From a virus (Duplodnaviria > Heunggongvirae > Uroviricota > Caudoviricetes): DNA of 41,636 nt. The stretch lies in the IMG/VR virus record IMGVR_UViG_2908567220_000009, one strand, 5' to 3'. Positions 1 through 39,400 of the stretch are shown one piece after another. The position numbers and the translations under genes were made by a program. The notes under the pieces are model-generated. The model worked only from the letters and a program-made list of their open reading frames with translations, ran no database searches and was not told where the DNA came from. Position 1 is the first letter of the stretch; every line of letters starts with the position of its first letter.

Positions 1-1
1 A

Positions 2-1297
2 TTAATTTTTCATTGCTTCGTTATGGGGCATGGTTGGGGCAAACTCGCTTAACTGTGTATTTAACAAAGCTACCTGTGCATTATTGTTTTCAGACATCCA
101 TTTTCCGTATACCTGAAATACCATTTGCGCATCTGCATGGCCCATCTGGTTTGCTATAAATGCCGGGTTAGCACCAGCTGTCAGCGACCAGCAGGCATAA
201 GTATGTCTCGACTGATATGATTTTCGATGGCGGAGTCCGGCACGTTTTATCGCTGCGTCCCACATCTGCCTTATTGAGTCAACGGTAAAATGGTCACCAT
301 AATTTTTTACTCTCGCTGACACTTCAGGTTGAAAAACAAAGGTGCATTTATGTTTTTCTGTTCTGCCATACTCTCTGAGGTGAACATCAATGATATGCTC
401 TTTGCTCAGTCTCGTTAATGTCATCTGACTCCGGAGAGCGTCGATTGCTGGCTTAATAAGATGAATGACCCGATTGGTTCCCGCCTGTGTTTTTGGTACC
501 GTGAAACGGTCTTTTGCTAAATTTCTCCTGATCATCATTGTTCCATTTTTCAGATCTATGTCCTCCCATCCAAGTGCACACAGCTCACCAGGGCGAACGC
601 CAGTATAAACAGAAACACACCATAAATTTTTGGCTTGCTGATTTCTGCACGCATCGATAAGACGGATGAATTCCTCCCGCGAAAGAGGATCCGGAATGGT
701 TCTTGATTCCTTTAATGGCGAGATCCCCTTAAACGGGTTATCTGCCAGGTAACCGTTATCAACACCAAACTGGAACACGGCGTTAAGATTTGTCATGTAA
801 TTATTTACAGTTACAGCCGATCTCCCTGGTTGTGTAACAATATAGTTACTTTTGGGGATCTGGTATCCAGTCAGTAGCTCTTTACGAACCTCCAGTAATT
901 TTTCTTTATTAATCGATGAGGCAAGATTTTTTTCACCGATTATGCTCAGGATATTTTTGATGACGGCACGGTATGTGTTGAGTGATGTTTTTGCGACTTC
1001 AGTTTCTTTCAGTGCCAGAAATTTTTCAGCCAGTTCTTTTATGGTTAAATCTTGTCGAGTCTCACCAAATTTTTCCAGATTGCGTGAGGAGGGAAACTGT
1101 TTTGCATAGTCGAAAACACCAGTTTTTATTGCGTAACAAACAGAGGCGCGTAGCTCACCTGCAACGCGCCTGTTTTTTGCTGTGTCAGGAACCCCCAGGT
1201 TTTCCCTGACTCTTACGCCTTTATAAACAAACCAGATACGTAATTTCCCTCCATGGTTTTCCACGCCTGTCGGATATTTCATTTCAACTTCTCTCAT
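2..1297 (-). CDS. int: prophage integrase (tyrosine site-specific recombinase)
   Basis: 431-aa ORF at the prophage end, directly downstream of xis on the same strand. C-terminal region has the R...HxxR...Y arrangement typical of tyrosine recombinases (TGVRPGE, SRHTYA, VYGKWM). A second in-frame ATG at 1282 (MKYPTG...) may be the true start. Confidence 0.85.
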   Translation of the reverse strand: MREVEMKYPTGVENHGGKLRIWFVYKGVRVRENLGVPDTAKNRRVAGELRASVCYAIKTGVFDYAKQFPSSRNLEKFGETRQDLTIKELAEKFLALKETEVAKTSLNTYRAVIKNILSIIGEKNLASSINKEKLLEVRKELLTGYQIPKSNYIVTQPGRSAVTVNNYMTNLNAVFQFGVDNGYLADNPFKGISPLKESRTIPDPLSREEFIRLIDACRNQQAKNLWCVSVYTGVRPGELCALGWEDIDLKNGTMMIRRNLAKDRFTVPKTQAGTNRVIHLIKPAIDALRSQMTLTRLSKEHIIDVHLREYGRTEKHKCTFVFQPEVSARVKNYGDHFTVDSIRQMWDAAIKRAGLRHRKSYQSRHTYACWSLTAGANPAFIANQMGHADAQMVFQVYGKWMSENNNAQVALLNTQLSEFAPTMPHNEAMKN

Positions 1298-1316
1298 TAG
1301 TTAGTGTGGCTTTTAG

Positions 1317-1568
1317 TCAAGTAAGATGACGTCTTGGTCTTGCTGATGCCTGGCGCTCAATCCAGCGATCAATTTCTTCCAGGTTGTAAAAGCATGGACT
1401 GTTATCCCATGGCATACCGTCATGAGCGACATGCTTATATTCCCTTCCTTCCATAAACGATTTTTCCCGGGCCTTTTTTAACGTACCTTTTTTTATTCCT
1501 TTCAGCGCAATTAACTGCTCTTCGGATACCCATTTGCCGGGAGAGACAATCATGATTACTTCGCTCAT
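1317..1568 (-). CDS. xis: putative excisionase (prophage Xis-like small DNA-binding protein)
   Basis: 83-aa ORF immediately upstream of int on the same strand, 19-bp gap; small and basic. Assignment is by position and size, not by a recognised motif. Confidence 0.55.
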   Translation of the reverse strand: MSEVIMIVSPGKWVSEEQLIALKGIKKGTLKKAREKSFMEGREYKHVAHDGMPWDNSPCFYNLEEIDRWIERQASARPRRHLT

Positions 1569-1640
1569 CGATTTCTTTATCTCTTACATCAGACGAGCGC
1601 CGGTTGCAGAATACCAGTCACAACCGGCGACAGTTGAACA

Positions 1641-4049
1641 TTAAGAATCAGCCTGACTCGGGATCAGTTTTTGCCAGATAACTGAAACGTATTTTGCCTG
1701 GTAACGGGCGTCATCAAGTGCATTATGGCGCTCACCTTCGAATGGAATAGCCGTTCTGGCATCGAAGTCTATGGCTTTCCCCAGCTCAACGATTGTGCGT
1801 ACATCGCGATCGTTGTAGTAACGCCACGGGCAGGGTATCCCCTGCCGTTCGTATGAACGGCGCAAAATCGTGTTGTCGAAGTTGGCTCCATTTCCCCAAA
1901 CCTGAACAAAAAATTCACCGGAGTTTTCGTCGATAAATTCCCGCAATTGTAACAGTGCATCATCTAACGGGATTTCATCGGTCATAATGGCCGATTGCGC
2001 TTCGCGTGATTGCTTAAGCCACCATTTAATGGTGTCCCGATCAATGACTCCGCCAGCAGTTTCCAGATCGATAGTCTTACTAAATTCCGGTCCCATATCT
2101 CCGGTTTGCGGATCGAAAAATATTGCACCTATTGAGATGATCGGGGCATCAGGATTTTTTCCCATGGTTTCAAGGTCGATCATTAGATGGTCACACGTCC
2201 TGCTGGTGGATGTGATTTCGTGATGACCGTTCACCTTAATTGAGTGATCTGCCGTCTCGCCAGTTTCATTATCGCTATCGTGATGCTGATTGCCGCCAGC
2301 GTTCTCCTTGTGTGGATGTTCAGCGCCTTCCATTTCCTCCGGATCATCTTCCTGAACTTCAACCTGATACTCTTCATCGAATGTTTCCTGGTATGTTGCG
2401 TCGCCCATCACCGCGCCACAATCAGGGCAGTTGCCGCCGCCGGTCTGACCGCAGGCGGTGCAGACTTTTTCCACTTCCTGTTGCGCCACTGATTCAGGCT
2501 GTTTCGTTTCTGGCTCGTTTTGTAACGCATTTGGGCTGTTTTGTTCCGCTTTTTGGTAGTTCCGTTCCGATTCATGCTGGTTCTGGTTCACAGAATCGCG
2601 GGTCTGGATCCCCTTAACCCATTTCGGATCATTCGGGTCACTAATCCCTTCAACAAATTCACCACGTGATGCAGCAAGCAACTTATCGGCGTCAGGCTGG
2701 CTGATATTGGCTGCCTGCATAATTTTGTTTACTTCGTCAGCGGTAACTTTTATCGGCTCTGGTTGTTCTGAATCTTCAGCGGTATCTACATTTTGCGGTA
2801 AGCCCGTGTATGTGCCATTTTTTCGGGCAAAATATTCTTCTTTTGTGATTTCAGTGGCGCCAGCAGCCAGTGCCTTATCCAGACCAGAAAGTTTGTTTGC
2901 GCGACCGTATTTTTCTCCGTCCTTATCTGCGAAGAGGAAATAGAACGGCCCCTCACGCTCTACAGATGGTTCAGCTTCCGGTGCGGTTTCATTTTTTGGG
3001 ATATCAGATACCTCAGTTTCTACTGCATCAGTTTGTGTTTCTGATGACTGGAGAACATCAACAGTGCCCAGGTCTGTTTCTTCATTCTCAAACACGCCCT
3101 TTGTCGTCAGGTATTCGCAGATATATTTGTTCAGTGCTACGGGATCTTTGTGAATGTCGATCGGACGCTCACGGACAAGGCCAAAAATAGTTTGGCGGTC
3201 GTAGCGAAGGGCATCAGGCTGTTTGCGTATTGATGCCGAGATACGCTTCCAGTCTTCGCGGTCGTTGTCGATAACTTCATTTTTTGCCCAGCGATGGATG
3301 CTGCCGTCAATGTTTCCGGCATCCACATCACCAGGCCAGAGAGCGTAGGCCAGTTCGTCATCCAGTGTTTTCCATGTCTGCTTGTATTCGCGATGAATGG
3401 CAGCAATGACCGGGCTGATTTTTCCTGTTGAATTTTCAGTGTACTGTTGATTGGCTCTGGCGCGGGCGAGATCAACAACAGACGTGTATTTTCCGGTTTC
3501 CTTGCGTTCACCTTCGCGACGTTTTTTCCAGATGCGCATCTCTGCCTGAATTTCGGGCCATTTAGCACCAGGAATACATTTATGCTTAACCCACCCAATG
3601 GCGTGCAACTTAAGCTCCGGATACATGGCGTTAACTTCTGGCATTTTCATCAACGCTTCAACGATATGTCCGTTGAATGTTGCCATGTCTTCCTGCAACA
3701 ATTCCTGTGCGCTAATAACCATATCAACGGTGATGTTTTCACATGTGTCGAACTTAACCATGACAGCGTTCTGTACTTCAGGGGCCAGCTTGTCAAAAGT
3801 GACGTTCATCGGATCGGATTCAGTCTCAACCGGGACAAAAGAAGCAGACTCCTCATCCCAGCGGTTTTCCTGCATATATTCAGCATCCCATGAATCGAGG
3901 GCAGGGCGGGGTATACCAGGTTTATCCTCGCAGACAATAAATTTATAAGCGCAGTCCTGAGCAGCCGGATAATGTTCCAGGAATTGCCAGTGAAATTTTG
4001 CTCGAGCACGGCGTTCGTCGCCAGCTTCAATGGCTGTGGCTACAGCCAC
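1641..4049 (-). CDS. RecE-like (exonuclease VIII family) protein with C-terminal DEDDh (DnaQ-like) 3'-5' exonuclease domain; 5' end abuts IS1 and may be truncated
   Basis: 802-aa ORF. The middle segment (KLLAASRGEFVEGISDPNDPKWVKGIQTRDS...CTACGQTGGGNCPDCGAVMGDATYQETF) matches what I recall of Rac RecE. The C-terminus carries Exo I/II/III-like motifs (IDLETMG, VWGNGANFDNTIL, HNALDDARYQAKY). The annotated start is a GTG at 4047-4049 and the frame stays open across the IS1 boundary at 4066/4067. Confidence 0.7.
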   Translation of the reverse strand: MAVATAIEAGDERRARAKFHWQFLEHYPAAQDCAYKFIVCEDKPGIPRPALDSWDAEYMQENRWDEESASFVPVETESDPMNVTFDKLAPEVQNAVMVKFDTCENITVDMVISAQELLQEDMATFNGHIVEALMKMPEVNAMYPELKLHAIGWVKHKCIPGAKWPEIQAEMRIWKKRREGERKETGKYTSVVDLARARANQQYTENSTGKISPVIAAIHREYKQTWKTLDDELAYALWPGDVDAGNIDGSIHRWAKNEVIDNDREDWKRISASIRKQPDALRYDRQTIFGLVRERPIDIHKDPVALNKYICEYLTTKGVFENEETDLGTVDVLQSSETQTDAVETEVSDIPKNETAPEAEPSVEREGPFYFLFADKDGEKYGRANKLSGLDKALAAGATEITKEEYFARKNGTYTGLPQNVDTAEDSEQPEPIKVTADEVNKIMQAANISQPDADKLLAASRGEFVEGISDPNDPKWVKGIQTRDSVNQNQHESERNYQKAEQNSPNALQNEPETKQPESVAQQEVEKVCTACGQTGGGNCPDCGAVMGDATYQETFDEEYQVEVQEDDPEEMEGAEHPHKENAGGNQHHDSDNETGETADHSIKVNGHHEITSTSRTCDHLMIDLETMGKNPDAPIISIGAIFFDPQTGDMGPEFSKTIDLETAGGVIDRDTIKWWLKQSREAQSAIMTDEIPLDDALLQLREFIDENSGEFFVQVWGNGANFDNTILRRSYERQGIPCPWRYYNDRDVRTIVELGKAIDFDARTAIPFEGERHNALDDARYQAKYVSVIWQKLIPSQADS

Positions 4050-4121
4050 AGCGCCTTCTTCCCTTGGGTGATGCTGCCAACTTACTGATTTAGTGTATGA
4101 TGGTGTTTTTGAGGTGCTCCA

Positions 4122-4397
4122 GTGGCTTCTGTTTCTATCAGCTGTCCCTCCTGTTCAGCTACTGACGGGGTGGTGCGTAACGGCAAAAGCACCGCCGGAC
4201 ATCAGCGCTATCTCTGCTCTCACTGCCGTAAAACATGGCAACTGCAGTTCACTTACACCGCTTCTCAACCCGGTACGCACCAGAAAATCATTGATATGGC
4301 CATGAATGGCGTTGGATGCCGGGCAACTGCCCGCATTATGGGCGTTGGCCTCAACACGATTTTACGTCACTTAAAAAACTCAGGCCGCAGCCGGTAA
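4122..4397 (+). CDS. insA: IS1 InsA (transposition inhibitor / N-terminal part of InsAB')
   Basis: 91-aa [25 protein letters not shown]... with GTG start; the A6C frameshift motif TTAAAAAAC lies near 4371-4379. Confidence 0.95.
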
Positions 4398-4819
4398 CCT
4401 CGCGCATACAGCCGGGCAGTGACGTCATCGTCTGCGCGGAAATGGACGAACAGTGGGGCTATGTCGGGGCTAAATCGCGCCAGCGCTGGCTGTTTTACGC
4501 GTATGACAGTCTCCGGAAGACGGTTGTTGCGCACGTATTCGGTGAACGCACTATGGCGACGCTGGGGCGTCTTATGAGCCTGCTGTCACCCTTTGACGTG
4601 GTGATATGGATGACGGATGGCTGGCCGCTGTATGAATCCCGCCTGAAGGGAAAGCTGCACGTAATCAGCAAGCGATATACGCAGCGAATTGAGCGGCATA
4701 ACCTGAATCTGAGGCAGCACCTGGCACGGCTGGGACGGAAGTCGCTGTCGTTCTCAAAATCGGTGGAGCTGCATGACAAAGTCATCGGGCATTATCTGAA
4801 CATAAAACACTATCAATAA
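4316..4819 (+). CDS. insB: IS1 InsB frame (expressed as InsAB' transposase by programmed -1 frameshift)
   Basis: 167-aa ORF in the -1 frame relative to insA, C-terminus ...[15 protein letters not shown]. Confidence 0.9.
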
Positions 4820-4958
4820 GTTGGAGTCATTACCCTAAAGCAGTTCTCATTTCAGGTGTTATTCACTTATTCCTTCTTTGAGTCTCTCCAATTAAGTACG
4901 AAGTCGTTTCTGTTATGCAAACCATTTATTCCGAAAGGCTCAAGTTAAGGAATGTAGA

Positions 4959-5174
4959 ATGTCAAATAAAATGACTGGTTTAGTAAAATGGTTTAACGCT
5001 GATAAAGGTTTCGGCTTTATTTCTCCTGTTGATGGTAGTAAAGATGTGTTTGTGCATTTTTCTGCGATTCAGAATGATAATTATCGAACCTTATTTGAAG
5101 GTCAAAAGGTTACCTTCTCTATAGAGAGTGGTGCTAAAGGTCCTGCAGCAGCAAATGTCATCATTACTGATTAA
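4959..5174 (+). CDS. cspB: cold-shock protein, CspA family (CspB-like, 71 aa)
   Basis: [38 protein letters not shown]... carries the RNP1/RNP2 cold-shock-domain motifs. Position next to the holin matches the Qin order cspB-essQ. The symbol is from memory of K-12 paralogs. Confidence 0.85.
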
Positions 5175-5458
5175 AATTCATCGCTCGTCTGTATACGATA
5201 ACGAAGAAGGCTGATGCCTGAGTAGAGATACGGACAGAGTAGTGAATATTGGATCTCTTTAATAAAAAGTAAGGAGGTCCAATACATGAAACAATGGCCA
5301 GCATATTTGGCAAAATCTTAATCAGGAAAAGTATGCTAACCATTGTGGTGAAGTGCAGGTTTGCTGCATGAATAGTTTCACAGCAGAAGCTAACTGCTGG
5401 CATCGCAAAACAAAGTGCGTAAGTGGATGACTCCCACAAAAAGCACCACAATCTCAAA

Positions 5459-5478
5459 CCCGCTCAGGCGGGTTTTTT
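5459..5478 (+). terminator. rho-independent terminator-like hairpin
   Basis: CCCGC-TCAG-GCGGG stem-loop followed by TTTTTT, about 285 bp downstream of cspB. Confidence 0.5.
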
Positions 5479-5537
5479 ATTATCTGCTTTAAATATATTA
5501 TTAAAATATAAAAAATACTTGTTACTAATAAAATCAA

Positions 5538-5708
5538 TCAGGCTACAGCTTTAAGATTTGTCTGGAATACTTTGTTGCAATGAGGGCAGATCAAAAGGGC
5601 ACCTTTTTGTACTCTTGAAAAACTGTGTTCTGACTCTTGGGTGCAGTTTGGGCAGGAACATTTAACGAGATAATTACGGCGTGATTTTGAGTCTTTACGT
5701 TCTGACAT
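5538..5708 (-). CDS. ynfU: small zinc-ribbon protein (YnfU-like)
   Basis: 56 aa from MSERK with two CxxC pairs (CSCPNC...CPHC). The annotated ORF extends to 5759 by an alternative start. The symbol is tentative. Confidence 0.55.
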   Translation of the reverse strand: MSERKDSKSRRNYLVKCSCPNCTQESEHSFSRVQKGALLICPHCNKVFQTNLKAVA

Positions 5709-5927
5709 AGGCTTTTCCTGTATAAATGGCCGTATACAGTACACTAAATATGAAAACATTTCTCGTATTATTATTTTATATATGACTTTCTTTCAAAATA
5801 ATTACCCACATTTTTAATGTGTATGTTTTTTTAGCGCCGTTGAGAACAACGTGTGCTGTCAAAACTACCCCGTAGACTCCGATCTTTTCAAACATATTGC
5901 ACCATCCGTGTACATCGGGGTGAGGAT

Positions 5928-6143
5928 ATGAAATCAATGGATAAGTTAACAACAGGTGTTGCCTATGGCACATCGGCGGGTAATGCTGGTTTCTGGGCAT
6001 TGCAGTTACTCGATAAAGTAACTCCGTCACAGTGGGCTGCAATCGGTGTGCTGGGTAGCCTGGTTTTTGGCCTGCTGACGTATCTGACAAATCTTTATTT
6101 CAAGATTAAAGAAGACAGGCGTAAGGCTGCGAGAGGAGAGTAA
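5928..6143 (+). CDS. essQ: pinholin (phage 21 S21-type class II holin) with dual-start motif
   Basis: [71 protein letters not shown]: two TMDs and a charged C-terminus. Met1 and Met4 give the 71/68-aa antiholin/holin pair as I recall for S21. GAGGAT RBS upstream of 5928. Confidence 0.85.
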
Positions 6144-6147
6144 TCCA

Positions 6148-6455
6148 ATGACTCAAGACTATGAACTGGTTGTGAAAGGAGTCCGTAATTTTGAGAATAA
6201 AGTTACGGTAACTGTAGCCTTACAGGACAAAGAACGCTTTGACGGTGAAATTTTTGGCCTGGATGTCGCCATGGACCGTGTTGAAGGAGCTGCGCTGGAG
6301 TTTTATGAGGCAGCAGCCAGAATGAGCGTCCGGCAAGTCTTCCTGGAAGTAGCAGAAAAATTGTCAGAAAAAGTTGAGTCTTATCTGCAGCATCAGTACT
6401 CCTTTAAGATTGAAAATCCTGCCAATAAGCACGAGCGTCCTCATCATAAATATCT

Positions 6456-6459
<4 letters not shown>
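6148..6459 (+). CDS. ydfR: Qin-type prophage protein of unknown function (YdfR-like)
   Basis: 103-aa ORF between holin and endolysin with a good RBS (GAGAGGAG); its stop overlaps the endolysin start (ATGA). Confidence 0.65.
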
Positions 6460-7483
<1,024 letters not shown>

Positions 7484-7846
7484 ATTAATATTAAATCGGA
7501 TTATTTTTAGCGCTGAATGTGAAATTTAAATAAAAAGGACTCTTCCATGAGTCAAAATCCTTGAAATCTTAAGGGTAAGATAAAAGGTCATTAGACAGAA
7601 TGACACGTTTTATTAATAAATAAAGCTATTGTTTCATTCGTGTGTTTTTCTTTACAAAAGTAATCCTTGCTATGGTTGGTTAATCATGCGTTAATGGTGT
7701 TCTGGTTTGTTACAAAATTATCTGAAGCAGTCATTGTTATAATTTTATTATTTGTACCTCTTGAGATTTCCTTGTTGGTTTTTCTCTCTGATATTTTTTT
7801 TCGGACCATTCTGCCCAAGGGCTAACTTCTTCAAAAGGTAATAATG

Positions 7847-8059
7847 ATGTCTAACAAAATGACTGGTTTAGTGAAATGGTTTAACCCTGAAAAAGGTTTT
7901 GGTTTCATCACGCCGAAAGATGGTAGCAAAGATGTGTTTGTGCATTTCTCAGCTATTCAGAGCAACGATTTCAAAACGTTAACTGAGAATCAGGAAGTCG
8001 AATTTGGTATTGAGAACGGACCTAAAGGCCCTGCAGCTGTTCATGTAGTGGCACTTTGA
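7847..8059 (+). CDS. cspI: cold-shock protein, CspA family (CspI-like, 70 aa)
   Basis: [45 protein letters not shown]...; long AT-rich 5' leader (7484-7846) as in cspA-family genes; position after Rz as in Qin. Confidence 0.85.
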
Positions 8060-8266
8060 GGTAGAAAATATTACAAACCATATTCACTTTAGATGCCCGT
8101 GTTGCCATGGTTCTCAGTATAGAACATCATCTTTTGATGTTTCTGACAGAAATCCTTTCGGGGCAAAATGTATCTTTTGTAAATCAATGATGATTACATT
8201 TGATAATATTTCACAATACTTAAATGTTAGCCATCTGTCGTTAGATTTAAGAAAGTGAAAATGAAG

Positions 8267-8286
8267 GCTCCTTCGGGAGCTTTTTT
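8267..8286 (+). terminator. rho-independent terminator
   Basis: GCTCC-TTCG-GGAGC hairpin followed by TTTTTT, downstream of cspI. Confidence 0.6.
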
Positions 8287-8330
8287 GCTTAGTGTCTAGT
8301 CGATGGATACTCACATATTACGGTAACATT

Positions 8331-8561
8331 ATGAAAAAAATAATAGTTTTTTTTAACTCTGAACCAGCAATGGTAGTGCCAGTGATGACCGGAGTTAACA
8401 CCATCATGCGTGAATATCCAAATGGCGAAACAACACACCTCACTGTAATGGCTGCAGGGTTTCCATCTCTGACCGGAGATCATAAAGTCATTTATGTAGC
8501 AGCGGATCGACATGTAACTTCAGAAGAAATTCTGGAAGCAGCAATGAGACTCTTGAATTGA
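8331..8561 (+). CDS. ynfN: small Qin-type protein (YnfN-like)
   Basis: 76 aa from MKKIIVFFNSEPAMVV...; located between cspI and gnsB as in K-12 Qin. Start and symbol uncertain. Confidence 0.45.
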   Translation: MKKIIVFFNSEPAMVVPVMTGVNTIMREYPNGETTHLTVMAAGFPSLTGDHKVIYVAADRHVTSEEILEAAMRLLN

Positions 8562-9500: not shown

Positions 9501-9511
9501 TGGATTTGCCC

Positions 9512-9826
9512 CTATATTTCCAGACATCTGTTATCACTTAACCCATTACAAGCCCGCTGCCGCAGATATTCCCGTGGCGAGCGATAACCCAGCGCACTAT
9601 GCGGATGCCATTCGTTATAATGCTCGAACGCCTCTGCAAGGTTCTTTGCTGCCGTTAACCCGTCTGGTTTGGGCATGATACTGATGTAGTCACGCTTTAT
9701 CGTTTTCACGAAGCTCTCTGCTATTCCGTTACTCTCCGGACTCCGCACCGCCGTGTTCTTCGGTTCAAGTCCCAACATCCGGGCGAACTGGCGTGTTTCA
9801 TTAGCCCGGTAGCATGAACCATTATC
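9512..9826 (-). pseudogene. insD: IS2 insD, C-terminal fragment (split by IS66-family insertion)
   Basis: Encodes ...[34 protein letters not shown]...[29 protein letters not shown], continuous with the N-terminal fragment at 12527-13129 once the insertion and one TSD copy are removed. Confidence 0.9.
9819..9826. repeat. 8-bp target-site duplication (CCATTATC) of the IS66-family element, left copy
   Basis: CCATTATC directly flanks both ends of the inserted element (9819-9826 and 12531-12538). Confidence 0.8.
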
Positions 9827-9911
9827 GTAACCGTCTCATTTAAACCGTCTTTCGCCTCCCTTTCCTGTTTCCGATACTAATGTCCATTTTCGCAGTAAAG
9901 GGACATTTAAG

Positions 9912-10562
9912 ATGAATGCACGAAAAGCGGTACTGGCAGACAATCCGGAATTGATCCTGCGTGTGCTACAGCTGAGATTTGACGAGTCACTGTCGTACCC
10001 GCGCATTTCTGCGCAGACCGGTGTCAGCAAAACCGCCATTTTTTCTCTGGTGAGGCGATTTCACCAGGTATTCACTGACTGGCCTCTTTCCGGTGAATAT
10101 TCCTGCGGGCAACTGGCCCGGGCTCTTTTCCCGGGGCGATACCCTTCAGCCCCGACCGTGACTCAGCCTGTGAAAGCAGAGAAACCCCGCCGGAACCGAT
10201 TTTCACCGGAGTTTAAATGGAGACTGGTTCAGCAAACTCTTTTACCCGGTGCCTGTGTCGCACAAATAGCTCGAGAGAATGGAATTAACGATAACCTGCT
10301 CTTTAACTGGCGGCATCTCTGGCGTAACGGTGGCCTGCAACCGCCCGGCGAACATGAAACATCGCTACTTCCCGTGACGTTAACTCCGGAGCCGGATAAT
10401 AAAATCCCGGCACCAGTGCAGATACCTGAACAGATAAATACACTGCCAGACAGTCTGTGCTGCGAGCTGGTTCTGCCGGCCGGAACTCTCAGGCTGAAAG
10501 GTGAACTGACACCGGCGTTATTACAGACACTTATCCGCGAAATGAAAGGGAGCAGCCACTGA
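9912..10562 (+). CDS. IS66-family accessory protein (orfA/TnpA)
   Basis: 216-aa ORF, first of three co-oriented ORFs inside the element; its stop overlaps the orfB start (ATGA). Confidence 0.75.
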   Translation: MNARKAVLADNPELILRVLQLRFDESLSYPRISAQTGVSKTAIFSLVRRFHQVFTDWPLSGEYSCGQLARALFPGRYPSAPTVTQPVKAEKPRRNRFSPEFKWRLVQQTLLPGACVAQIARENGINDNLLFNWRHLWRNGGLQPPGEHETSLLPVTLTPEPDNKIPAPVQIPEQINTLPDSLCCELVLPAGTLRLKGELTPALLQTLIREMKGSSH

Positions 10563-10909
10563 TGATATCTCTCCCTGCCGGTTCGCGTATCTGGCTGGTT
10601 GCCGGTATCACCGATATGCGAAATGGCTTTAACGGCCTGGCCTCAAAAGTTCAGAACGTCCTGAAGGATGACCCGTTCTCCGGGCATCTGTTCATCTTCC
10701 GCGGACGCCGGGGTGACCAGATAAAAGTGCTGTGGGCTGACAGTGACGGACTGTGCCTCTTCACCAAACGCCTGGAGCGGGGCCGCTTCGTCTGGCCGGT
10801 CACCCGCGATGGAAAGGTTCACCTTACTCCGGCTCAGTTGTCCATGCTTCTCGAAGGCATCGACTGGAAGCACCCGAAACGAACGGAACGCGCTGGCATC
10901 CGCATATAA
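10562..10909 (+). CDS. IS66-family Orf2 (TnpB-like)
   Basis: 115 aa MISLPAGSRIWLVAGITDMRNGFNGLASKV...; size and the conserved N-terminal motif fit IS66 Orf2. Confidence 0.85.
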   Translation: MISLPAGSRIWLVAGITDMRNGFNGLASKVQNVLKDDPFSGHLFIFRGRRGDQIKVLWADSDGLCLFTKRLERGRFVWPVTRDGKVHLTPAQLSMLLEGIDWKHPKRTERAGIRI

Positions 10910-10928
10910 CCCGTTGTAAAGTGAGGAT

Positions 10929-12500
10929 ATGGACACCTCACTTGCTCATGAGAATGCCCGCCTGCGGGCACTGTTGCAGACGCAACAGGACACCATCCGC
11001 CAGATGGCGAAATACAACCGCCTGCTCTCACAGCGGGTGGCGGCTTATGCTTCCGAAATCAACCGGCTGAAGGCGCTGGTTGCGAAACTGCAGCGCATGC
11101 AGTTCGGTAAAAGCTCAGAAAAACTTCGCGCTAAAACCGAACGGCAGATACAGGAAGCCCAGGAGCGAATCAGCGCACTTCAGGAAGAAATGGCGGAAAC
11201 GCTGGATGAGCAATATGACCCGGTACTGCCATCCGCCCTGCGCCAGTCTTCAGCCCGTAAGCCGTTACCGGCCTCACTTCCCCGTGAAACCCGGGTCATC
11301 CGGCCGGAAGAGGAATGCTGCCCGGCCTGTGGTGGTGACCTCAGTCCTCTGGGGTGTGATGTGTCAGAGCAACTGGAGCTTATCAGCAGCGCTTTTAAGG
11401 TTATCGAAACACAACGTCCGAAACTGGCCTGTTGCCGGTGCGACCATATCGTGCAGGCACCAGTACCTTCAAAACCCATTGCACGCAGTTATGCCGGAGC
11501 GGGGCTTCTGGCTCATATCGTCACCGGGAAGTATGCAGACCATCTGCCGTTATACCGCCAGTCAGAAATATACCTTCGTCAGGGCGTGGAACTGAGCCGC
11601 GCCACGCTGGGGCGCTGGACCGGTGCCGTTGCTGAACTGCTGGAGCCGCTGTATGACGTGCTGCGCCAGTATGTGCTGATGCCCGGTAAAGTCCATGCGG
11701 ATGATATCCCCGTTCCGGTCCAGGAGCCGGGCAGTGGTAAAACAAGAACTGCCCGGCTGTGGGTCTATGTCCGTGATGACCGTAACGCCGGTTCACAGAT
11801 GCCCCCGGCGGTCTGGTTCGCGTACAGCCCGGACCGGAAAGGTATCCATCCACAGAATCACCTGGCCGGTTACAGCGGTGTGCTTCAGGCAGATGCTTAC
11901 GGTGGTTACCGGGCGTTATACGAATCCGGCAGAATAACGGAAGCCGCGTGTATGGCCCATGCCCGGAGAAAAATCCACGATGTGCATGCAAGAGTGCCAA
12001 CCGACATCACCACGGAAGCCCTGCAGCGTATCGGTGAACTGTATGTCATCGAGGCAGAAGTCCGGGGATGTTCAGCAGAACAGCGTCTGGCAGCAAGAAA
12101 AGCCAGAGCGGCTCCACTGATGCAGTCACTGTATGACTGGATACAGGAACAGATGAAAACACTGTCGCGTCACTCGGATACGGCAAAAGCGTTCGCATAC
12201 CTGCTGAAACAGTGGGAGGCCCTGAACGTGTACTGCAGTAATGGCTGGGTGGAAATCGACAACAACATCGCAGAGAACGCCTTACGGGGAGTGGCCGTAG
12301 GCCGGAAAAACTGGCTCTTCGCGGGTTCCGACAGCGGTGGCGAACATGCGGCGGTGTTGTACTCGCTGATCGGCACATGCCGTCTGAACAATGTGGAACC
12401 AGAAAAATGGCTGCGTTACGTCATTGAGCATATCCAGGATTGGCCGGCAAACCGGGTACGCGATCTGTTGCCCTGGAAAGTTGATCTGACCTCTCAGTAA
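10929..12500 (+). CDS. IS66-family transposase (orfC/TnpC)
   Basis: 523 aa with an N-terminal leucine-zipper-like region, CxxC...CxxC zinc-finger motifs (CPACGG...CCRCDH) and a DDE-type core. Confidence 0.9.
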
Positions 12501-12526
12501 ATATCAATACGGTTCTGGCGAGCCGC

Positions 12527-13129
12527 TTACCCATTATCCGTCAGCCACTCCACTGGAGACGACGGAAGATCGTTGCCGAAGCGGCGTTCCACCGCTCCCA
12601 GCATGACGTCCTGTACTGTTTCACTGTTGAAGCCGCCGGTAGTGACCGCCCAGTGCAGTGCCTCACGATCACAGCAGTCCAGCGCGAACGTGACACGCAG
12701 TCTCTCTCCGTTATCACAGCAGAACTCGAACCCGTCAGAGCACCATCGCTGATTGCTTTCTTTCACGGCCACTCTGCCTGTATGTGCCCGTTTCGATGGC
12801 GGTACAGCAGGTTTTCGCTCAAGCAACAGCGCATTCTGGCGCATGATCCGGTAAACACGTTTGGCATTGATCGCAGGCATACCATCAAGTTCTGCCTGTC
12901 TGCGAAGCAGCGCCCATACCCGACGATAACCATACGTGGGCAGCTCTCCGATAACATGGTGTATACGGAGAAGCACATCCGTATCATCAGTGTGACGACT
13001 GCGGCGGCCATCCATCCAGTCATCGGTTCGTCTGAGAATGACGTGCAACTGCGCACGCGACACCCGGAGACAACGGCTGACTAAGCTTACTCCCCATCCC
13101 CGGGCAATAAGGGCGCGTGCGCTATCCAC
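12527..13129 (-). pseudogene. insD: IS2 insD, N-terminal fragment
   Basis: [34 protein letters not shown]...VEWLTDNG, ending in a stop created at the IS66 junction. Confidence 0.9.
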
Positions 13130-13452
13130 TTTTTTGCCCGTCCATATTCAACGGCTTCTTTGAGGAGTTCATTTTCCATCGTTTTCTTGCCGAGCAGGCG
13201 CTGGAGTTCTTTAATCTGCTTCATGGCGGCAGCAAGTTCAGAGGCAGGAACAACCTGTTCTCCGGCGGCGACAGCAGTAAGACTTCCTTCCTGGTATTGC
13301 TTACGCCAGAGAAATAACTGGCTGGCTGCTACACCATGTTGCCGGGCAACGAGGGAGACCGTCATCCCCGGTTCAAAGCTCTGCTGAACAATTGCGATCT
13401 TTTCCTGTGTGGTACGCCGTCTGCGTTTCTCCGGCCCTAAGACATCAATCAT
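13087..13452 (-). CDS. insC: IS2 InsC (OrfA, HTH protein)
   Basis: 121 aa from [41 protein letters not shown]...; the ORF track extends it upstream by an alternative start. Confidence 0.9.
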
Positions 13453-13543
13453 CTGTTCTCCAATGACTAGTCTAAAAACTAGTATTAAGACTATCACTTA
13501 AATAAGTGATATTGGTTGTCTGGAGATTCAGGGGGCCAGTCTA

Positions 13544-14554: not shown

Positions 14555-16653
14555 ATGGGTTTTTCATCAGCCCGAAATTTGGGAAGGGACATATCGGCAG
14601 GATTTTCCCCACCACGTCGCATGCCGATTTCGGAGGCTGTTAAAAAATTCATGCGTGTTCCCAAGGGGGCTGGTAACTCGGTGCCAGGGATCCTGAACTG
14701 ACACCCTACATCATTGAGCCCATGAACTGCCTGGCATCGCGTGAATACGATGCGGTGATTTTTGTTGGTCCTGCGCGAACAGGGAAGACCATTGGTCTGA
14801 TCGATGGATGGATTGTCTATACCATCGTTTGCGATCCTTCGGACATGCTCGTTGTGCAGATGACCGAAGATAAGGCCCGCGAGCATTCTAAAAAGCGCCT
14901 CGACAGAACGTTCAGAAGCAGTGCGGCGGTAAAGAAAAGAATGAGTCCACGTCGTAACGACAATAATGTCCATGATAAGACGTTCAGGGATGGCTCGTTC
15001 CTTAAAATTGGTTGGCCCTCGGTCAACATTATGTCGTCGTCGGATTACCGGTTTGTCGCCTTAACCGATTACGACCGTTTTCCGGAGAATATCGACAGCG
15101 AGGGTGATGGTTTCTCCCTGGCCTCAAAACGTACCACCACATTTATGTCCGCCGGGATGACTCTGGTGGAGAGCTCGCCGGGACGTGACATCTGCGACAG
15201 CAAATGGCGACGTAAGTCGCCTCATGAAGCGCCACCGACGACTGGTATTCTTTCCCTTTACAATCGTGGTGACCGCCGCCGCTGGTACTGGTCATGTCCG
15301 CACTGCGGTGAATATTTTCAGCCAGCCATGGATGCCATGACCGGCTACCGTAATGAACCGGATCCCTTTAAAGCCAGTGAGGCGGCGTATCTACTTTGCC
15401 CGCACTGCAGCGGCATTATCACTGCGGAGAAAAAGCGTGAGCTCAATAGTGCAGGAGTCTGGTTGCGTGAAGGTCAGGTCATTGATCGTAACGGCAACGT
15501 TTCCGGTGAACCGCGCCGCTCCCGTATCGCCAGTTTCTGGATGGAAGGGCCAGCTGCTGCGTATCAGACCTGGGCGCAACTGGTTTACAAATTACTGACT
15601 GCAGAACAGGAGTATGAAGCGACAGGAAGCGAAGAAACACTCAGGGCGGTTATCAACACCGACTGGGGATTGCCTTATCTTCCTCGTGCCAGCATGGAGC
15701 AACGAAAAAGTGAACTGCTTGAGCAGCGGGCAGAGCCAGTTCCTTCCCGCAGTGTGCCGGATGGCATTAATTTCCTTGTGGCGACAGTGGATGTGCAGGC
15801 GGGACGTCATCGCCGTTTTGTGGTTCAGGTAACGGGCTATGGCAGTCGTGGCGAACGCTGGATTATTGATCGTTACAACATCACGCAGTCATTGCGCAGT
15901 GACTGCGACGGGGAGAGCCAGCGAATTGATCCGGCCAGCTATCCGGAAGACTGGGATGTCCTGCTGACGGATGTTTTTCATAAAAGCTGGCCGCTGGCCT
16001 CCGATCCTTCTCAACAAATGCGACTGATGGCAATGGCGGTGGACTCCGGCGGTGAAGACGGGGTCACTGATAATGCCTATAAATTCTGGCGTCGTTGCCG
16101 TCGTGATGGCCTTGGTAAACGTATTTACCTGTTTAAGGGTGACAGCATCCGGCGCGCAAAACTGATCAGCCGTACATTCCCTGATAACACCGGACGAACG
16201 GGCCGCCGGGCGCAGGCCGCAGGTGATGTGCCGCTCTGGCTTCTTCAGACGGATGCCCTGAAAGACCGGGTGAATAACGCGTTATGGCGTGACTCGCCAG
16301 GTCCAGGCTATGTGCATTTCCCTGACTGGCTGGGGAGCTGGTTTTACGACGAACTGACGTATGAAGAGCGAAGCAGTGACGGGAAATGGAGTAAGCCGGG
16401 TCGCGGTGCCAACGAAGCTTTTGACCTGATGGTGTATGCCGAGGCTCTGGTCATTCTGCATGGATACGAAAAGATCCGCTGGCCGGATGCACCGGAGTGG
16501 GCGAGCCGGGAAACCTGGCTGGAGTGTGTCCAGGACAGTACCGAACCGTCATCCTCACCGGAACCGGTATCCACGCCTGTTAAAAAACAAAAACGGAAGA
16601 AAACAGTAACTGACGATGTTAACCCCTGGCTGACTTCCGGAGGATGGTTATGA
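14555..16653 (+). pseudogene. terminase large subunit (lambda gpA family) interrupted by a frameshift near 14681-14700
   Basis: ATG at 14555 with a strong RBS (AGGAGG) encodes 48 aa ending at a TGA (14699-14701). The remaining 643-aa frame (annotated from 14722, open from 14677) is displaced by one nucleotide. Homology to lambda gpA is continuous across the break (VPKGAGNS / RDPELTPYIIEPMNCLAS versus lambda LPKESAYQEGRWETLPFQRAIMNAMGS). Confidence 0.8.
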
Positions 16654-18383: not shown

Positions 18384-20342
18384 ATGCAGGCTGGTCACCA
18401 GAGTGACGCGGATATTTATATTTATGACGAGATTGGTTTCTGGGGTGTTACAGCGAAGCAGTTTATCAGTGATCTGAATGCACTGGGCGATATCACCCAC
18501 ATTAATCTCCATATTAATTCACCGGGTGGCGATGTCTTTGAAGGCATCGCCATTTTTAATGCGCTGAAAACACATGGTGCGTCCATTACCGTTTATGTCG
18601 ACGGTGTGGCGGCGTCAATGGCGTCGGTCATTGCGATGGTGGGAAACCCGGTCATTATGCCGGAAAACACCTTCATGATGATTCATAAACCATTTGGCTT
18701 TACGGGCGGTGATGCGGAGGACATGCGCACCTATGCCGACCTGCTCGATAAAGTTGAGGCGGTTCTGTTACCCGCTTATGCACAGAAAACCGGGAAAACC
18801 ACCGATGAAATTGCTGCCATGCTGGCGGATGAGACCTGGATGTCCGGTGCCGAATGTCTGGCACATGGATTTGCTGATCAGGTGACACCAGCCGTTAAGG
18901 CAATGGCATGTATTCAGTCAAAACGTACAGAGGAATTTAAAAAGATGCCGGAATCCATTCGAAATATGATTACTCCGCCACGCAACAGTGCTCCACGCGT
19001 ACAGGATGATGGACCTGCAGCCTCCCGGACGCCAGTGCAGGCAGCAGCACCCGTGGTGGATGAAAACAGCATCCGTGCGCAGGTCCTGGCAGAGCAAAAA
19101 GCGCGTGTAAACGGTATTAATGATCTGTTTGCCATGTTTGGCGGGCGTTATCAGTCGTTGCAGGCTCAGTGTCTTGCCGATCCTGAATGTTCGCTGGAGC
19201 AGGCCCGCGAAAAGCTGTTGAACGAGATGGGGCGCGAGTCCACGCCATCCAATAAAAATACCCCGGCTCATATTTATGCCGGTAACGGTAATTTTGTGGG
19301 GGACGGGATCCGCCAGGCGCTGATGGCGCGCGCCGGGTTTGAAAAAACCGAACGTGATAATGTCTACAACGGGATGACCCTGCGTGAATATGCCCGTATG
19401 TCACTGACTGAACGTGGTATTGGTGTTTCCGGTTATAACCCGATGCAGATGGTCGGTGCGGCGTTCACACACAGTACGTCTGACTTCGGTAATATTCTGC
19501 TGGATGTTGCGAACAAAGCCATTCTGCAGGGCTGGGAAGATGCCCCTGAAACCTATGAACAGTGGACGCGGAAAGGTCAGTTGTCTAATTTTAAAATTGC
19601 CCATCGTGTGGGTATGGGGGGCTTCAGTGCTCTGCGTCAGGTGCGTGAAGGGGCAGAATATAAATACGTCACCACCGGAGATAAACAGGCCACTATTGCA
19701 CTGGCGACCTATGGCGAGCTGTTCAGTATCACCCGTCAGGCCATTATCAATGATGATCTGAATATGCTGACCGATGTCCCGATGAAGCTGGGCCGTGCGG
19801 CGAAATCCACTATTGCCGATCTGGTTTATGCCATTCTGACGTCTAACCCGAAAATCTCCACAGATAATGTAAGTCTGTTCGATAAAGCGAAACATGCAAA
19901 CGTACTGGAGAGCGCGGCAATGGACGTGGCATCGCTGGATAAAGCCCGCCAGTTGATGCGCGTTCAGAAAGAGGGGGAGCGTCATCTGAATATTCGTCCT
20001 GCGTTCGTACTGGTACCGACGGCGATGGAGTCTGTTGCTAACCAGGTCATTCGCTCCTCAAGTGTCAAGGGGGCTGACATTAACGCCGGTATTATTAACC
20101 CGGTGAAAGATTTTGCGACCGTTATTGCAGAGCCTCGTCTTGATGATAACAGCCAGACCACCTTCTACCTGGCTGCGTCAAAAGGCTCCGATACGATTGA
20201 AGTGGCTTATCTCAACGGTGTGGATACGCCATATATTGATCAGATGGAGGGCTTCAGTGTGGATGGCGTGACAACGAAAGTGCGTATTGACGCCGGTGTC
20301 GCGCCAGTTGATCACCGCGGTCTGGTGAAATGTACGGCGTAA
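18384..20342 (+). CDS. prohead protease (ClpP/S49-like) fused to major capsid protein
   Basis: 653 aa from MQAGHQ.... The N-terminal ~200 aa are ClpP-like (HINSPGGDVFEGIAIFNALK..., GVAASMASVIAMVG); the C-terminal ~330 aa are capsid-like. A strong terminator follows. Confidence 0.8.
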   Translation: MQAGHQSDADIYIYDEIGFWGVTAKQFISDLNALGDITHINLHINSPGGDVFEGIAIFNALKTHGASITVYVDGVAASMASVIAMVGNPVIMPENTFMMIHKPFGFTGGDAEDMRTYADLLDKVEAVLLPAYAQKTGKTTDEIAAMLADETWMSGAECLAHGFADQVTPAVKAMACIQSKRTEEFKKMPESIRNMITPPRNSAPRVQDDGPAASRTPVQAAAPVVDENSIRAQVLAEQKARVNGINDLFAMFGGRYQSLQAQCLADPECSLEQAREKLLNEMGRESTPSNKNTPAHIYAGNGNFVGDGIRQALMARAGFEKTERDNVYNGMTLREYARMSLTERGIGVSGYNPMQMVGAAFTHSTSDFGNILLDVANKAILQGWEDAPETYEQWTRKGQLSNFKIAHRVGMGGFSALRQVREGAEYKYVTTGDKQATIALATYGELFSITRQAIINDDLNMLTDVPMKLGRAAKSTIADLVYAILTSNPKISTDNVSLFDKAKHANVLESAAMDVASLDKARQLMRVQKEGERHLNIRPAFVLVPTAMESVANQVIRSSSVKGADINAGIINPVKDFATVIAEPRLDDNSQTTFYLAASKGSDTIEVAYLNGVDTPYIDQMEGFSVDGVTTKVRIDAGVAPVDHRGLVKCTA

Positions 20343-20366
20343 ACGTCGCAGACAACAACTCTGATG

Positions 20367-20385
20367 GCCCGTAAGGGCTTTTTTT
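20367..20385 (+). terminator. rho-independent terminator after the capsid gene
   Basis: GCCC-GTAA-GGGC hairpin followed by seven T residues. Confidence 0.6.
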
Positions 20386-20428
20386 GTACCTGAAATCAGC
20401 CCCTGAACGGGGCTGTGCGGAGACAGTT

Positions 20429-20752
20429 ATGGCAAAGAATTTTGTAGAAGAAGGAAAAACGGTGGCGATTGTTGCCAGTGCAGCCATCAGCAGCGGAGAT
20501 CTGGTGCAGGTGGGCGATGTTTTTGCGGTGGCGCTGACCGATATTCCACAGGGTGAAACAGGCGACGGCATGACCGAAGGTGTGTTTATGCTGCCTAAGC
20601 TGAAAACGGATGACATGAAAACGGGTAAGAAGGTTTATCTGAAGTCCGGAAAAGTTCAGCTGACTAACAGCGGCTCTGATCCGCTGGTCGGGGTTGTCTG
20701 GGCAGATGCCGGAACCAGTGCAGAAGAAGTGCCGGTAAAACTCAATGTCTGA
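20429..20752 (+). CDS. small head-associated protein (putative decoration/cement protein)
   Basis: 108 aa from MAKNFVEEGKTVAIV...; RBS GGAG upstream; position equivalent to lambda D/FI between capsid and FII. Confidence 0.5.
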   Translation: MAKNFVEEGKTVAIVASAAISSGDLVQVGDVFAVALTDIPQGETGDGMTEGVFMLPKLKTDDMKTGKKVYLKSGKVQLTNSGSDPLVGVVWADAGTSAEEVPVKLNV

Positions 20753-21020
20753 TCCCTTTTCCCGGCTGGCAGCGCGTATGGATGCGATCACGGTCAGAAA
20801 GATGGGAAAGACAGCCTCGATTAATGATGTCGATATGACTGTGATCCCGGGAGAAACACTGGCAGAGCTGAATGCTCTGTCCGGACCTGCGGTCTCTCTG
20901 GTGGTGTTTTCTTCGGGATACCGCCCACGGCGCGGGGATCGCGTTGTTTATGACGGACAACAATGGACGGTCACACGGCATGAACGTTTTAACGGTAAGC
21001 CAATGATCTTTATTGAGTAA
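20745..21020 (+). CDS. head-tail joining protein (lambda gpFII-like)
   Basis: 91 aa; the C-terminal RRGDRVVYDGQQWTV resembles lambda FII RRGDTLTIGEENFWV; gene order fits. Confidence 0.6.
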   Translation: MSDPFSRLAARMDAITVRKMGKTASINDVDMTVIPGETLAELNALSGPAVSLVVFSSGYRPRRGDRVVYDGQQWTVTRHERFNGKPMIFIE

Positions 21021-21031
21021 AGAGGTGTGGG

Positions 21032-21610
21032 ATGAAGGGGCTTGAGAATGCCATCCGCAATCTGAACAGCCTTGATACCCGTATGGTGCCACAGGCCAGC
21101 GCATGGGCGATAAACCGTGTGGCACAGAAAGCGGTCTCGGTTACCACCCGGCAGGTTGCCGGGAATACCGTTGCGGGAGATAACCAGGTGAAAGGGATCC
21201 CCCTGAAACTGGTACGTCAGCGTGTCCGGGTGTTTAAAGCCAGTCCGTCAGGAAAAATGACGGCCAGGATCCGCGTTAACCGGGGCAATCTGCCTGCCAT
21301 TAAGCTGGGGACAGCCCGGGTCAGACTGGCCCGGCGTGGTGGAAAACTGCAGTACCGTGGCAGTGTGCTGAAGGTGGGTAAATATCTTTTCCGGGATGCG
21401 TTTATTCAGCAACTGGCGAATGGTCGCTGGCATGTGATGCGGCGTATTGATGGCAAAAATCGTTACCCCATTGATGTGGTGAAAATCCCGCTGTCCGGAC
21501 CGCTGACACAGGCATTTGAAGATGCCCGCGACCGCATCATTGCTGCGGAAATGCCGAAACAGCTGGGGTATGCACTGAAACAACAACTGAGGTTATGGCT
21601 GACCCGATGA
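21032..21610 (+). CDS. Z: minor tail protein Z
   Basis: 192 aa, the same length as lambda Z, in the position preceding U. Confidence 0.7.
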   Translation: MKGLENAIRNLNSLDTRMVPQASAWAINRVAQKAVSVTTRQVAGNTVAGDNQVKGIPLKLVRQRVRVFKASPSGKMTARIRVNRGNLPAIKLGTARVRLARRGGKLQYRGSVLKVGKYLFRDAFIQQLANGRWHVMRRIDGKNRYPIDVVKIPLSGPLTQAFEDARDRIIAAEMPKQLGYALKQQLRLWLTR

Positions 21611-22008
21611 ACCGACATACACAAATCCGCCAGGTCGTACTGGCACGCCTTCGGGAACAGTGTGGAGACAGCGCCACGTTTTTTGACGGGCTTCCGGCAT
21701 TTGTTGATGCGCAGGAACTGCCTGCCGTGGCGGTGTGGCTGAGTGATGCTCAGTACACCGGAAAAATGACGGATGAAGATGACTGGCAGGCTGTTCTGCA
21801 TATTGCTGTCTTCATCCGGGCACAGGCACCGGATTCAGAGCTGGATATGTGGATGGAGAGCACCATTTTCCCGGCCCTGAATGATGTACCAGCACTTTCC
21901 GGACTCATCGACACCCTGATCCCACTCGGTTTTAACTATCAACGTGATAATGAGATGGCCACCTGGGCGATGGCGGAAATCACGTACCAGATCACGTACA
22001 CGAATTAA
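21607..22008 (+). CDS. U: tail terminator protein U
   Basis: Strong similarity to lambda U: ...ATFFDGLPAFVDAQELPAVAVWLSDAQYTG...DWQAVLHIAVFIRAQAPDSELDMWMES.... Start overlaps the Z stop (ATGA). Confidence 0.85.
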   Translation: MNRHTQIRQVVLARLREQCGDSATFFDGLPAFVDAQELPAVAVWLSDAQYTGKMTDEDDWQAVLHIAVFIRAQAPDSELDMWMESTIFPALNDVPALSGLIDTLIPLGFNYQRDNEMATWAMAEITYQITYTN

Positions 22009-28370: not shown

Positions 28371-28939
28371 AAACGGGGGCTGAAGCCATCCGCGCACTGG
28401 CCACACAGCTCCCGGCGTTTCGTCAGAAACTGAGCGACGGCTGGTATCAGGTACGGATTGCCGGGCGGGACGTCAGCACGTCCGGGTTAACGGCGCAGTT
28501 ACATGAGACTCTGCCTGATGGCGCTGTGATTCATATTGTTCCCAGAGTCGCCGGGGCCAAGTCAGGTGGCGTATTCCAGATTGTCCTGGGGGCTGCCGCC
28601 ATTGCCGGATCATTCTTTACCGCCGGAGCCACCCTTGCAGCATGGGGGGCAGCCATTGGGGCCGGTGGTATGACCGGCATCCTGTTTTCTCTCGGTGCCA
28701 GTATGGTGCTCGGTGGTGTGGCGCAGATGCTGGCACCGAAAGCCAGAACTCCCCGTACACAGACAATGGATAACGGCAAACAGAACACCTATTTCTCCTC
28801 ACTGGATAACATGGTTGCCCAGGGCAATGTTCTGCCGGTTCTGTACGGTGAAATGCGCGTGGGGTCACGCGTGGTTTCTCAGGAGATCAGCACGGCAGAC
28901 GAAGGGGATGGTGGTCAGGTTGTGGTGATTGGTCGCTGA
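28268..28939 (+). CDS. I: tail assembly protein I
   Basis: 223 aa with a ubiquitin-like N-terminus and a Gly/Ala-rich hydrophobic segment; overlaps the K 3' end as in lambda. Confidence 0.85.
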   Translation: MAATHTLPLASPGMARICLYGDLQRFGRRIDLRVKTGAEAIRALATQLPAFRQKLSDGWYQVRIAGRDVSTSGLTAQLHETLPDGAVIHIVPRVAGAKSGGVFQIVLGAAAIAGSFFTAGATLAAWGAAIGAGGMTGILFSLGASMVLGGVAQMLAPKARTPRTQTMDNGKQNTYFSSLDNMVAQGNVLPVLYGEMRVGSRVVSQEISTADEGDGGQVVVIGR

Positions 28940-28996: not shown

Positions 28997-32398
<3,402 letters not shown>

Positions 32399-36731: not shown

Positions 36732-36734
36732 TAT

Positions 36735-39385: not shown

Positions 39386-39400
39386 GTTGGAGTCATTACC

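Follow-up and report, generated by a model that had tools for sequence, protein, structure and literature searches.

Organization of the Prophage Locus

The window, by which we mean the whole stretch of 41,636 nucleotides analyzed here, is 100% identical over 10,049 bp to CP024978.1, the chromosome of the porcine enterotoxigenic E. coli (ETEC) strain CV839-15 (PMC5824013). This identity rules out a Shigella origin, which had been suspected from the density of IS1 copies. The prophage is located at the Qin site, that is, between rspB and ydfJ: int adjoins rspB in the identical locus L011 (rspB/rspA-type genes) and in every relative compared, and in the relatives the far end lies at ydfJ, a side that is deleted in the window. 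Among intact relatives, the prophage at the Qin locus of porcine ETEC6335 (locus L015) is the closest. Window positions 1–4066 correspond to L015 positions 1069–5134 (99.85% identity) and positions 4835–8430 to 18406–22001 (99.83% identity), while the flanks of the other relatives reach only 99.2–99.5% identity.

The left arm is encoded on the minus strand. It begins with a tyrosine recombinase of 426 aa (positions 2–1282; Pfam Arm-DNA-bind_2 and Phage_integrase), which is apparently intact, lies beside rspB in the source genome and is likewise called as a 426-aa gene in L011. The excisionase gene follows at 1317–1568 (Pfam DUF1233 putative excisionase, E 1.6e-31), and positions 1641–4066 hold a large YdfE-family exonuclease gene whose product has a C-terminal DEDD 3′-5′ domain (Pfam Rv2179c-like, E 2.5e-67). 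This gene is truncated at its 5′ end, where the left end of an IS1 element takes 46 nt off the full length of 2472 nt. The remaining ORF (1641–4049) opens at a GTG (4049) and encodes 802 aa as compared to 823 aa in the full-length protein; the match to the PHROG 2082 exonuclease covers profile positions 23–822 of 823. The 802-aa product is found residue for residue in five public assemblies, CP024978.1 among them. A consensus scan for a hybrid promoter at the left end of IS1, reading into the exonuclease remnant, returned none on that strand.

The sequence-only reading had named this leftward gene recE, an assignment that the domain content of its product contradicts. K-12 RecE matches Exonuc_VIII (PF06630) and a PDDEXK nuclease domain (PF12684, DUF3799), and the window protein matches neither. 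It carries YdfE_N and YdfE_C according to precomputed hits, and otherwise only Rv2179c-like/RNase_T matches in Pfam. Furthermore, no recT partner lies beside the exonuclease gene, which is followed directly by xis and then int; in Rac, recT sits downstream of recE. In annotations, the gene beside IS1 should hence not carry the name recE, and it is cut at its 5′ end as well. The protein itself is a mosaic, the middle part of which differs only slightly from the dispensable central part of Rac RecE and contains a CxxC...CxxC motif. This mosaic is a domain swap between genes of prophage recombination regions, with a DEDD domain in place of the PDDEXK domain of RecE.

IS1 copy A occupies positions 4067–4834 on the plus strand and reads in the direction of cspB and the late genes. 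With 768 bp it has the length of an intact IS1; it is 99.9% identical to annotated IS1 copies of other E. coli and appears among the matches as an IS1A-family transposase. The element starts with GGTGATGCTGCC (in a longer stretch, GGTGATGCTGCCAAC) and ends with GGAGTCATTACC, and its terminal inverted repeats are imperfect (GGTGATGCTGCCAACTTACTGAT... and GGTAATGACTCCAACTTATTGAT...). It contains insA (4122–4397, plus strand; Pfam Zn_ribbon_InsA and HTH_Tnp_IS1) and the insB frame (4316–4819, plus strand; Pfam DDE_Tnp_IS1, E 6e-78), with the A6C motif for programmed −1 frameshifting (AAAAAAC) at approximately 4371–4377 in the insA/insB overlap. These coordinates, including the junction with the exonuclease gene at 4066/4067 and the start of cspB at 4959, 124 bp beyond the element, agree with those given earlier from the sequence.

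The 9-mers on the two sides of copy A are unequal (CTTCCCTTG at 4058–4066 on the left, CTAAAGCAG at 4835–4843 on the right), and comparison of the flanks reveals no duplication of 9 bp or shorter, where IS1 is expected to leave one of 9 bp (range 8–11 bp). The missing target-site duplication argues against a simple insertion and not against the identity of the element, as it is expected if a deletion or recombination came after insertion. On the same grounds the sequence-only reading had proposed an IS1-associated deletion, and the matching 9-bp duplication that would have spoken for a simple insertion was looked for around this IS1 and not found. Among the three IS1 copies of the window, no flank pairs match either, so that swapped duplications, the trace of an inversion or recombination between copies, are rejected.

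Downstream of IS1, a 124-nt remnant of the cspB leader (4835–4958, plus strand) can be recognized by alignment with the upstream regions of K-12 cspA and of an intact Qin cspB. The cspB gene itself, a cold-shock protein moron (4959–5174, plus strand; Pfam CSD, E 1e-31), has an intact coding sequence and is annotated as cspB in the relatives. According to the alignment with K-12 cspA, intact Qin cspB is preceded by a cspA-like −35/−10 pair (TTGCTT ... GTTAAT) and a cold box, CGGTTTGAAGAACAGAC. In the window, the IS1 end replaces promoter, transcription start and cold box, and the Rfam match to the cspA thermoregulator (4806–5221) starts inside IS1. Judged from this arrangement, cold-shock induction of cspB is probably lost in CV839-15. 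The sequence-only reading had not noticed this loss, and cspB should be annotated here as lacking its own cold-shock promoter and cold box.

A hairpin resembling an intrinsic terminator (AAACCCGCTCAGGCGGGTTT followed by a T run; 5456–5475, plus strand) separates cspB from the holin gene and is present at the same site in an intact relative. The lysis cassette (5928–7483, plus strand) comprises the P21-type holin essD, ydfR (DUF1327), a lysozyme and a spanin-like DUF2514 protein as identified by Pfam. The morphogenesis genes (13989–36731, plus strand; PHROGs) encode the small and large terminase subunits, portal, a protease-capsid fusion, tail proteins, J, Lom and the tail fibre. From cspB to approximately position 28467 the late region of ETEC6335 shares 98.8–99.9% identity with the window, and the identity is lower in J and the tail-fibre genes. 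ETEC6335 differs from the window in the C-terminal part of J and over most of the 1202-aa tail-fibre gene (28467–28694, 31956–32381 and 33967–36783), where there is either no alignment or 94–96% identity, and a tfaQ-like assembly gene is not evident. This divergence suggests an exchange of host-range modules.

Several further lesions, absent from the sequence-only reading, affect the right part of the prophage. First, terL (14555–16653) lacks one nucleotide near 14686 in comparison with ETEC6335 (CCATGGG to CCAGGG), and the resulting frameshift splits the 699-aa gene into frames of 48 aa and 643 aa. The deletion lies outside a homopolymer run; it could be a sequencing error. Second, a nested IS block of about 4 kb (9501–13536) between gnsB and the gene for the small terminase subunit is absent from ETEC6335, as seen from a BLAST gap against L017. 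It consists of an IS3-family element on the minus strand (9512–9778 and 12527–13497; Pfam rve_3, rve and HTH_Tnp_1) in two parts, between which lies an ISCro1-like element of the IS66 family carrying tnpA, tnpB and tnpC (9912–12500; TnpB_IS66, DDE_Tnp_IS66). About 13 bp of ETEC6335 (L017 5059–5071) align to both edges of the block.

Third, IS1 copy B (38633–39400, plus strand) has the same orientation as copy A, differs from it at two positions and is likewise without a target-site duplication (GGAGTGATG and CTGTTTATG). It replaces 1,706 bp of ETEC6335, namely the right end of the phage with attR, all of the ydfJ′ remnant and 35 nt at the start of ydfI, of which a 5′-truncated ORF remains (39478–40824). 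Since attR is gone, excision by Int and Xis has no right-hand substrate. IS1 copy C (41244–41636, minus strand), which is inverted, comes after the ydfI-ydfZ region and is incomplete because the window ends within it. With three copies in 41.6 kb, the local density of IS1 is unusually high.

Extent and Content of the Deletion

Aligning the flanks of copy A against intact relatives, the check that had been suggested for this locus, maps the endpoints of the deletion. Relative to ETEC6335, an interval of 13,271 bp (L015 5135–18405) is missing and replaced by IS1 copy A. The same two breakpoints map onto four other relatives; they lie 8,113 bp apart in strain 12689 and 1,549 bp apart in strain 41, which already has an IS-free deletion that joins dicB to a truncated Q gene (dicB|′Q).

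The left part of the interval lost relative to ETEC6335 comprises the first 46 nt of the exonuclease gene and ydfD, dicB, ydfC, ydfB and ydfA. It is followed by the immunity genes, an HTH repressor gene and a divergent Cro/CI gene, and by the replication area with YdaT, a gene of 321 codons in the replication-gene position (O-like replication-region genes) and a DUF977 gene. A damaged methyltransferase gene and an ISEsa1 fragment are lost as well. The right part contains ydfW, flxA, ydfV, relBE, hokD, rem, ydfU, the Q gene ydfT and cspF. Hence, the immunity, replication and Q modules that lie between the recombination and lysis genes in ETEC6335 and 12689 are absent from the window.

Homologs of these genes elsewhere in the window would contradict the claim that the prophage lacks a repressor, replication genes and Q. 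Pfam scans of every ORF of at least 40 aa outside the main morphogenesis block found no such homologs; they returned only int, xis, the exonuclease, cold-shock proteins, lysis proteins, GnsB, the small terminase subunit, the Pin invertase, a mannitol dehydrogenase and transposases. Over 13989–36731, PHROGs assign only packaging, head and tail functions and a Lom-type outer-membrane protein, and no regulators. Moreover, tblastn of 20 early-region proteins of intact relatives against the window yields only the paralogy among cspF, cspB and cspI. Together with the 13,271-bp gap, these searches uphold the claim.

Loss of the Putative Late Promoter

In intact relatives, a putative late promoter is found 30–70 bp past ydfT. 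It reads TTTGCA-18-TAAAAT-ttttt-CAACGATGGG and is followed by a terminator hairpin with a 10-bp stem. The lambda pR′ promoter reads TTGACT-17 nt-TAAATT-tgact-CAACGATGGG, so that the same ten bases occur at the same spacing from the −10 hexamer. The YdfT protein is a member of the lambda Q family (Pfam Antiterm, E 3e-54). Based on its position and the 10-nt motif shared with lambda, we consider the promoter of the relatives a candidate for a lambda-like pR′. Lambda Q has to engage the RNA polymerase that pauses at pR′, which it does by way of a DNA site inside the promoter, and in lambda the CAACGATGGG stretch includes the sigma-70-dependent pause element where Q loads.

The pR′-like promoter, the pause and Q-loading region and the terminator all fall within the deleted interval. 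A motif search finds no pR′-like motif in the window, and the lysis genes are thus not preceded by a pR′ with pause and Q-loading element. A late promoter retained in the stretch from cspB to the holin gene was also considered and rejected, as the only candidate is a weak match to 9 of 12 consensus positions (5775–5802) that is no better than in shuffled sequence; a lambda-like pause motif is not present in this stretch. This bears on the proposal that the late operon could still be expressed if Q were supplied in trans. Because the Q-loading site required in cis is deleted together with pR′, Q in trans would be unable to rescue late transcription, and this part of the sequence-only reading does not hold. 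Taken together, IS1 copy A very probably marks an IS1-associated deletion of the control region that includes pR′. The observation is thereby confirmed and its core reading is right; as a whole the earlier interpretation is partly supported, with three points wrong or incomplete.

Origin of the Deletion

In the gal region of E. coli K-12, IS1 adjacent deletions reportedly start exactly at the IS1 end, as Reif and Saedler are said to have described in 1975. The definition of an IS1 adjacent deletion has been restated more recently (PMC12844343). Applied to the window, such a route would begin with an insertion of IS1 in the exonuclease gene. Intramolecular transposition from the right end of IS1 would then remove the adjoining DNA, retaining IS1 and one flank and leaving unmatched 9-mers. 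What remains in the window is a single intact IS1 that links the exonuclease gene, at codon 16, with a position 124 nt ahead of cspB. We infer that this specific route is the probable one, with appreciable room for others.

A single IS1 with unmatched flanks would look identical if two IS1 copies in direct orientation, one at the 5′ end of the exonuclease gene and one 124 nt upstream of cspB, had undergone RecA-dependent recombination. The 13 kb between them would be deleted and a hybrid IS1 with one 9-mer from each insertion would remain. The genome is rich in IS1, with two of the three copies in the 41.6-kb window in direct orientation, and related pig isolates have IS1 at many positions in this prophage. 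However, neither presumed parental insertion occurs in any of the collections searched. An insertion in the exonuclease gene would read from IS1 at 4066/4067 into CTTCCCTTG followed by TTGCCAGTTCG, and one upstream of cspB would read AGTTTACTAAAGCAG followed by GGTGATGCTGCC. No simple-insertion intermediate with a duplication of CTTCCCTTG or CTAAAGCAG is found in these collections.

Further evidence comes from assemblies that share one junction with the window. In GCA_964051545.1 (L010), the left junction between the truncated exonuclease gene and IS1 is identical, and the right end of IS1 abuts the equivalent of window position 5404, so that the deletion takes another 569 bp and with them cspB. 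The left junction recurs in a third assembly (L012). Nested deletions with a common left junction and differing right junctions favor repeated adjacent deletions from one IS1 end. Recombination between two IS1 copies would instead require yet another IS1 insertion at window position 5404 to account for L010, and we regard it as the less likely of the two routes. L010 shows other IS1-linked losses, which include, besides cspB, most of xis and all of int. In addition, another IS1 lies beside the equivalent of window position 8565, and the lysozyme/rzpQ region has received an extra IS3-family insertion. The erosion of this same prophage by IS elements has gone further in L010.

The deletion might also have arisen in several steps, with an IS-independent loss as in strain 41 coming first and IS1 then taking only about 1.5 kb (ydfD, dicB, the Q fragment and cspF). 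In strain 41, exo-ydfD-dicB runs directly into a truncated Q gene, cspF is damaged, and it is here that the breakpoints of the window lie only 1,549 bp apart. On the left and right, the flanks of strain 41 share 99.16% and 99.53% identity with the window, below the 99.85% and 99.83% reached by ETEC6335, which has a full early region and the same late region as the window. Since, moreover, the window retains nothing of the strain 41 junction, such a sequence of events appears improbable.

The distribution of the junctions calls for a look at the assembly itself. Both junctions are absent from 5,426 complete RefSeq E. coli genomes, and exact-junction scans for both gave zero matches in GTDB representatives, JGI metagenome contigs and IMG/VR. 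The right junction is seen in one assembly only (CP024978). An initial search had suggested that it is common to many genomes, which was due to the cspB flank matching together with unrelated IS1 copies downstream in Qin; junction-specific searches gave no single-piece match for either of the two junctions. As IS1 is a multi-copy repeat of 768 bp, the hybrid PacBio/Illumina assembly could in principle have joined two different IS1 copies, in which case the exo′-IS1-cspB arrangement would not exist in the cell. Against this, at least three independent assemblies contain the left junction, and another megabase-scale contig is among them; a 768-bp repeat is easily spanned by the 8–10 kb PacBio library used (PMC5824013). 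The early region would furthermore have to sit elsewhere, and two more IS1-linked rearrangements occur at the same locus in the same genome. We therefore consider an assembly artefact extremely improbable.

The locus is hit by IS1 repeatedly. In 29 complete E. coli genomes, the left end of an IS1 lies at a position different from that in the window but no more than a few hundred bp away from this exonuclease gene, and several of these have deletions of their own (exo-IS1-replication gene, dicB-IS1-ydfJ′ and cspB′-IS1-ydfJ′).

Functional State of the Prophage

Based on its gene content, the prophage would be left without immunity, replication, a late promoter or an antiterminator. IS1 points towards cspB and the late genes, and some read-out is thus conceivable: weak transcription from IS1, or from internal promoters, might enter cspB and the late genes. 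IS1 insertions are classically polar. The terminator at 5456–5475 separates cspB from the holin gene, and the prophage has kept nothing that would render polymerase terminator-resistant. A transcript reading out of IS1 would be predicted to meet this terminator before reaching the holin gene.

The direct copies A and B bracket a block of 33.8 kb with the lysis and morphogenesis genes, which is formally a Tn9-like composite element. The block might move or amplify as a unit, or read-out from copy A might drive cspB and the late genes constitutively, so that a regulator-free phage-particle module would be under IS control; we consider this a far-fetched reading of the arrangement. Recombination between the two copies would lose the whole late region, an end state that already exists in strain NT1F10 (dicB-IS1-ydfJ′), a related pig isolate.

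The loss of the control region and attR, the broken terL and the nested IS block together point to a grounded, decaying remnant. The head and tail genes present here should hence not be taken for an inducible phage. That IS1 drives the decay of cryptic lambdoid prophages is already known and a textbook phenomenon. The window adds a clean and fully mapped case, in which one IS1 removes immunity, replication, Q and the late promoter together and a second copy removes attR.

Comparison With Known Systems

The exonuclease gene resembles Rac recE, which encodes exonuclease VIII, in its leftward orientation beside xis and int. The similarity extends to a central segment of the protein (residues 241–604 as compared to RecE residues 278–591; 40% identity), which is near-identical at 455–600. 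The proteins differ in their domains, with Exonuc_VIII and PDDEXK (DUF3799) in RecE and the DEDD Rv2179c-like domain and YdfE_N/C in the window protein, and in the absence of recT from the window.

Late gene control in the intact relatives resembles antitermination by Q at lambda pR′, as they combine a lambda-family Q with a promoter that carries CAACGATGGG at the spacing found in pR′. In the window, in contrast, the Q gene and the promoter with its loading site in cis are both deleted.

With the IS1 adjacent deletions of the K-12 gal region the window shares an intact IS1 that is kept, a deletion that starts at the IS1 end, the lack of a target-site duplication and nested deletions with one common junction. 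Here, however, a prophage control region is deleted, and the event is deduced from the comparison of genomes.

Finally, Qin of K-12 and the Qin-locus prophages of ETEC6335 and strain 12689 share with the window the integration site (rspB | int ... ydfJ) and the left arm with int, xis and exonuclease. They also share the cspB-ynfU-essD-ydfR-rrrQ-rzpQ-cspI-gnsB block and the pinQ/ydfK right end, at 98–99.9% DNA identity. K-12 Qin retains the early region from dicB-dicA-dicC through relBE to quuQ and has lost nearly all morphogenesis genes. The prophage of the window is the reverse of this: its early region is gone, and a near-full set of head and tail genes is kept.
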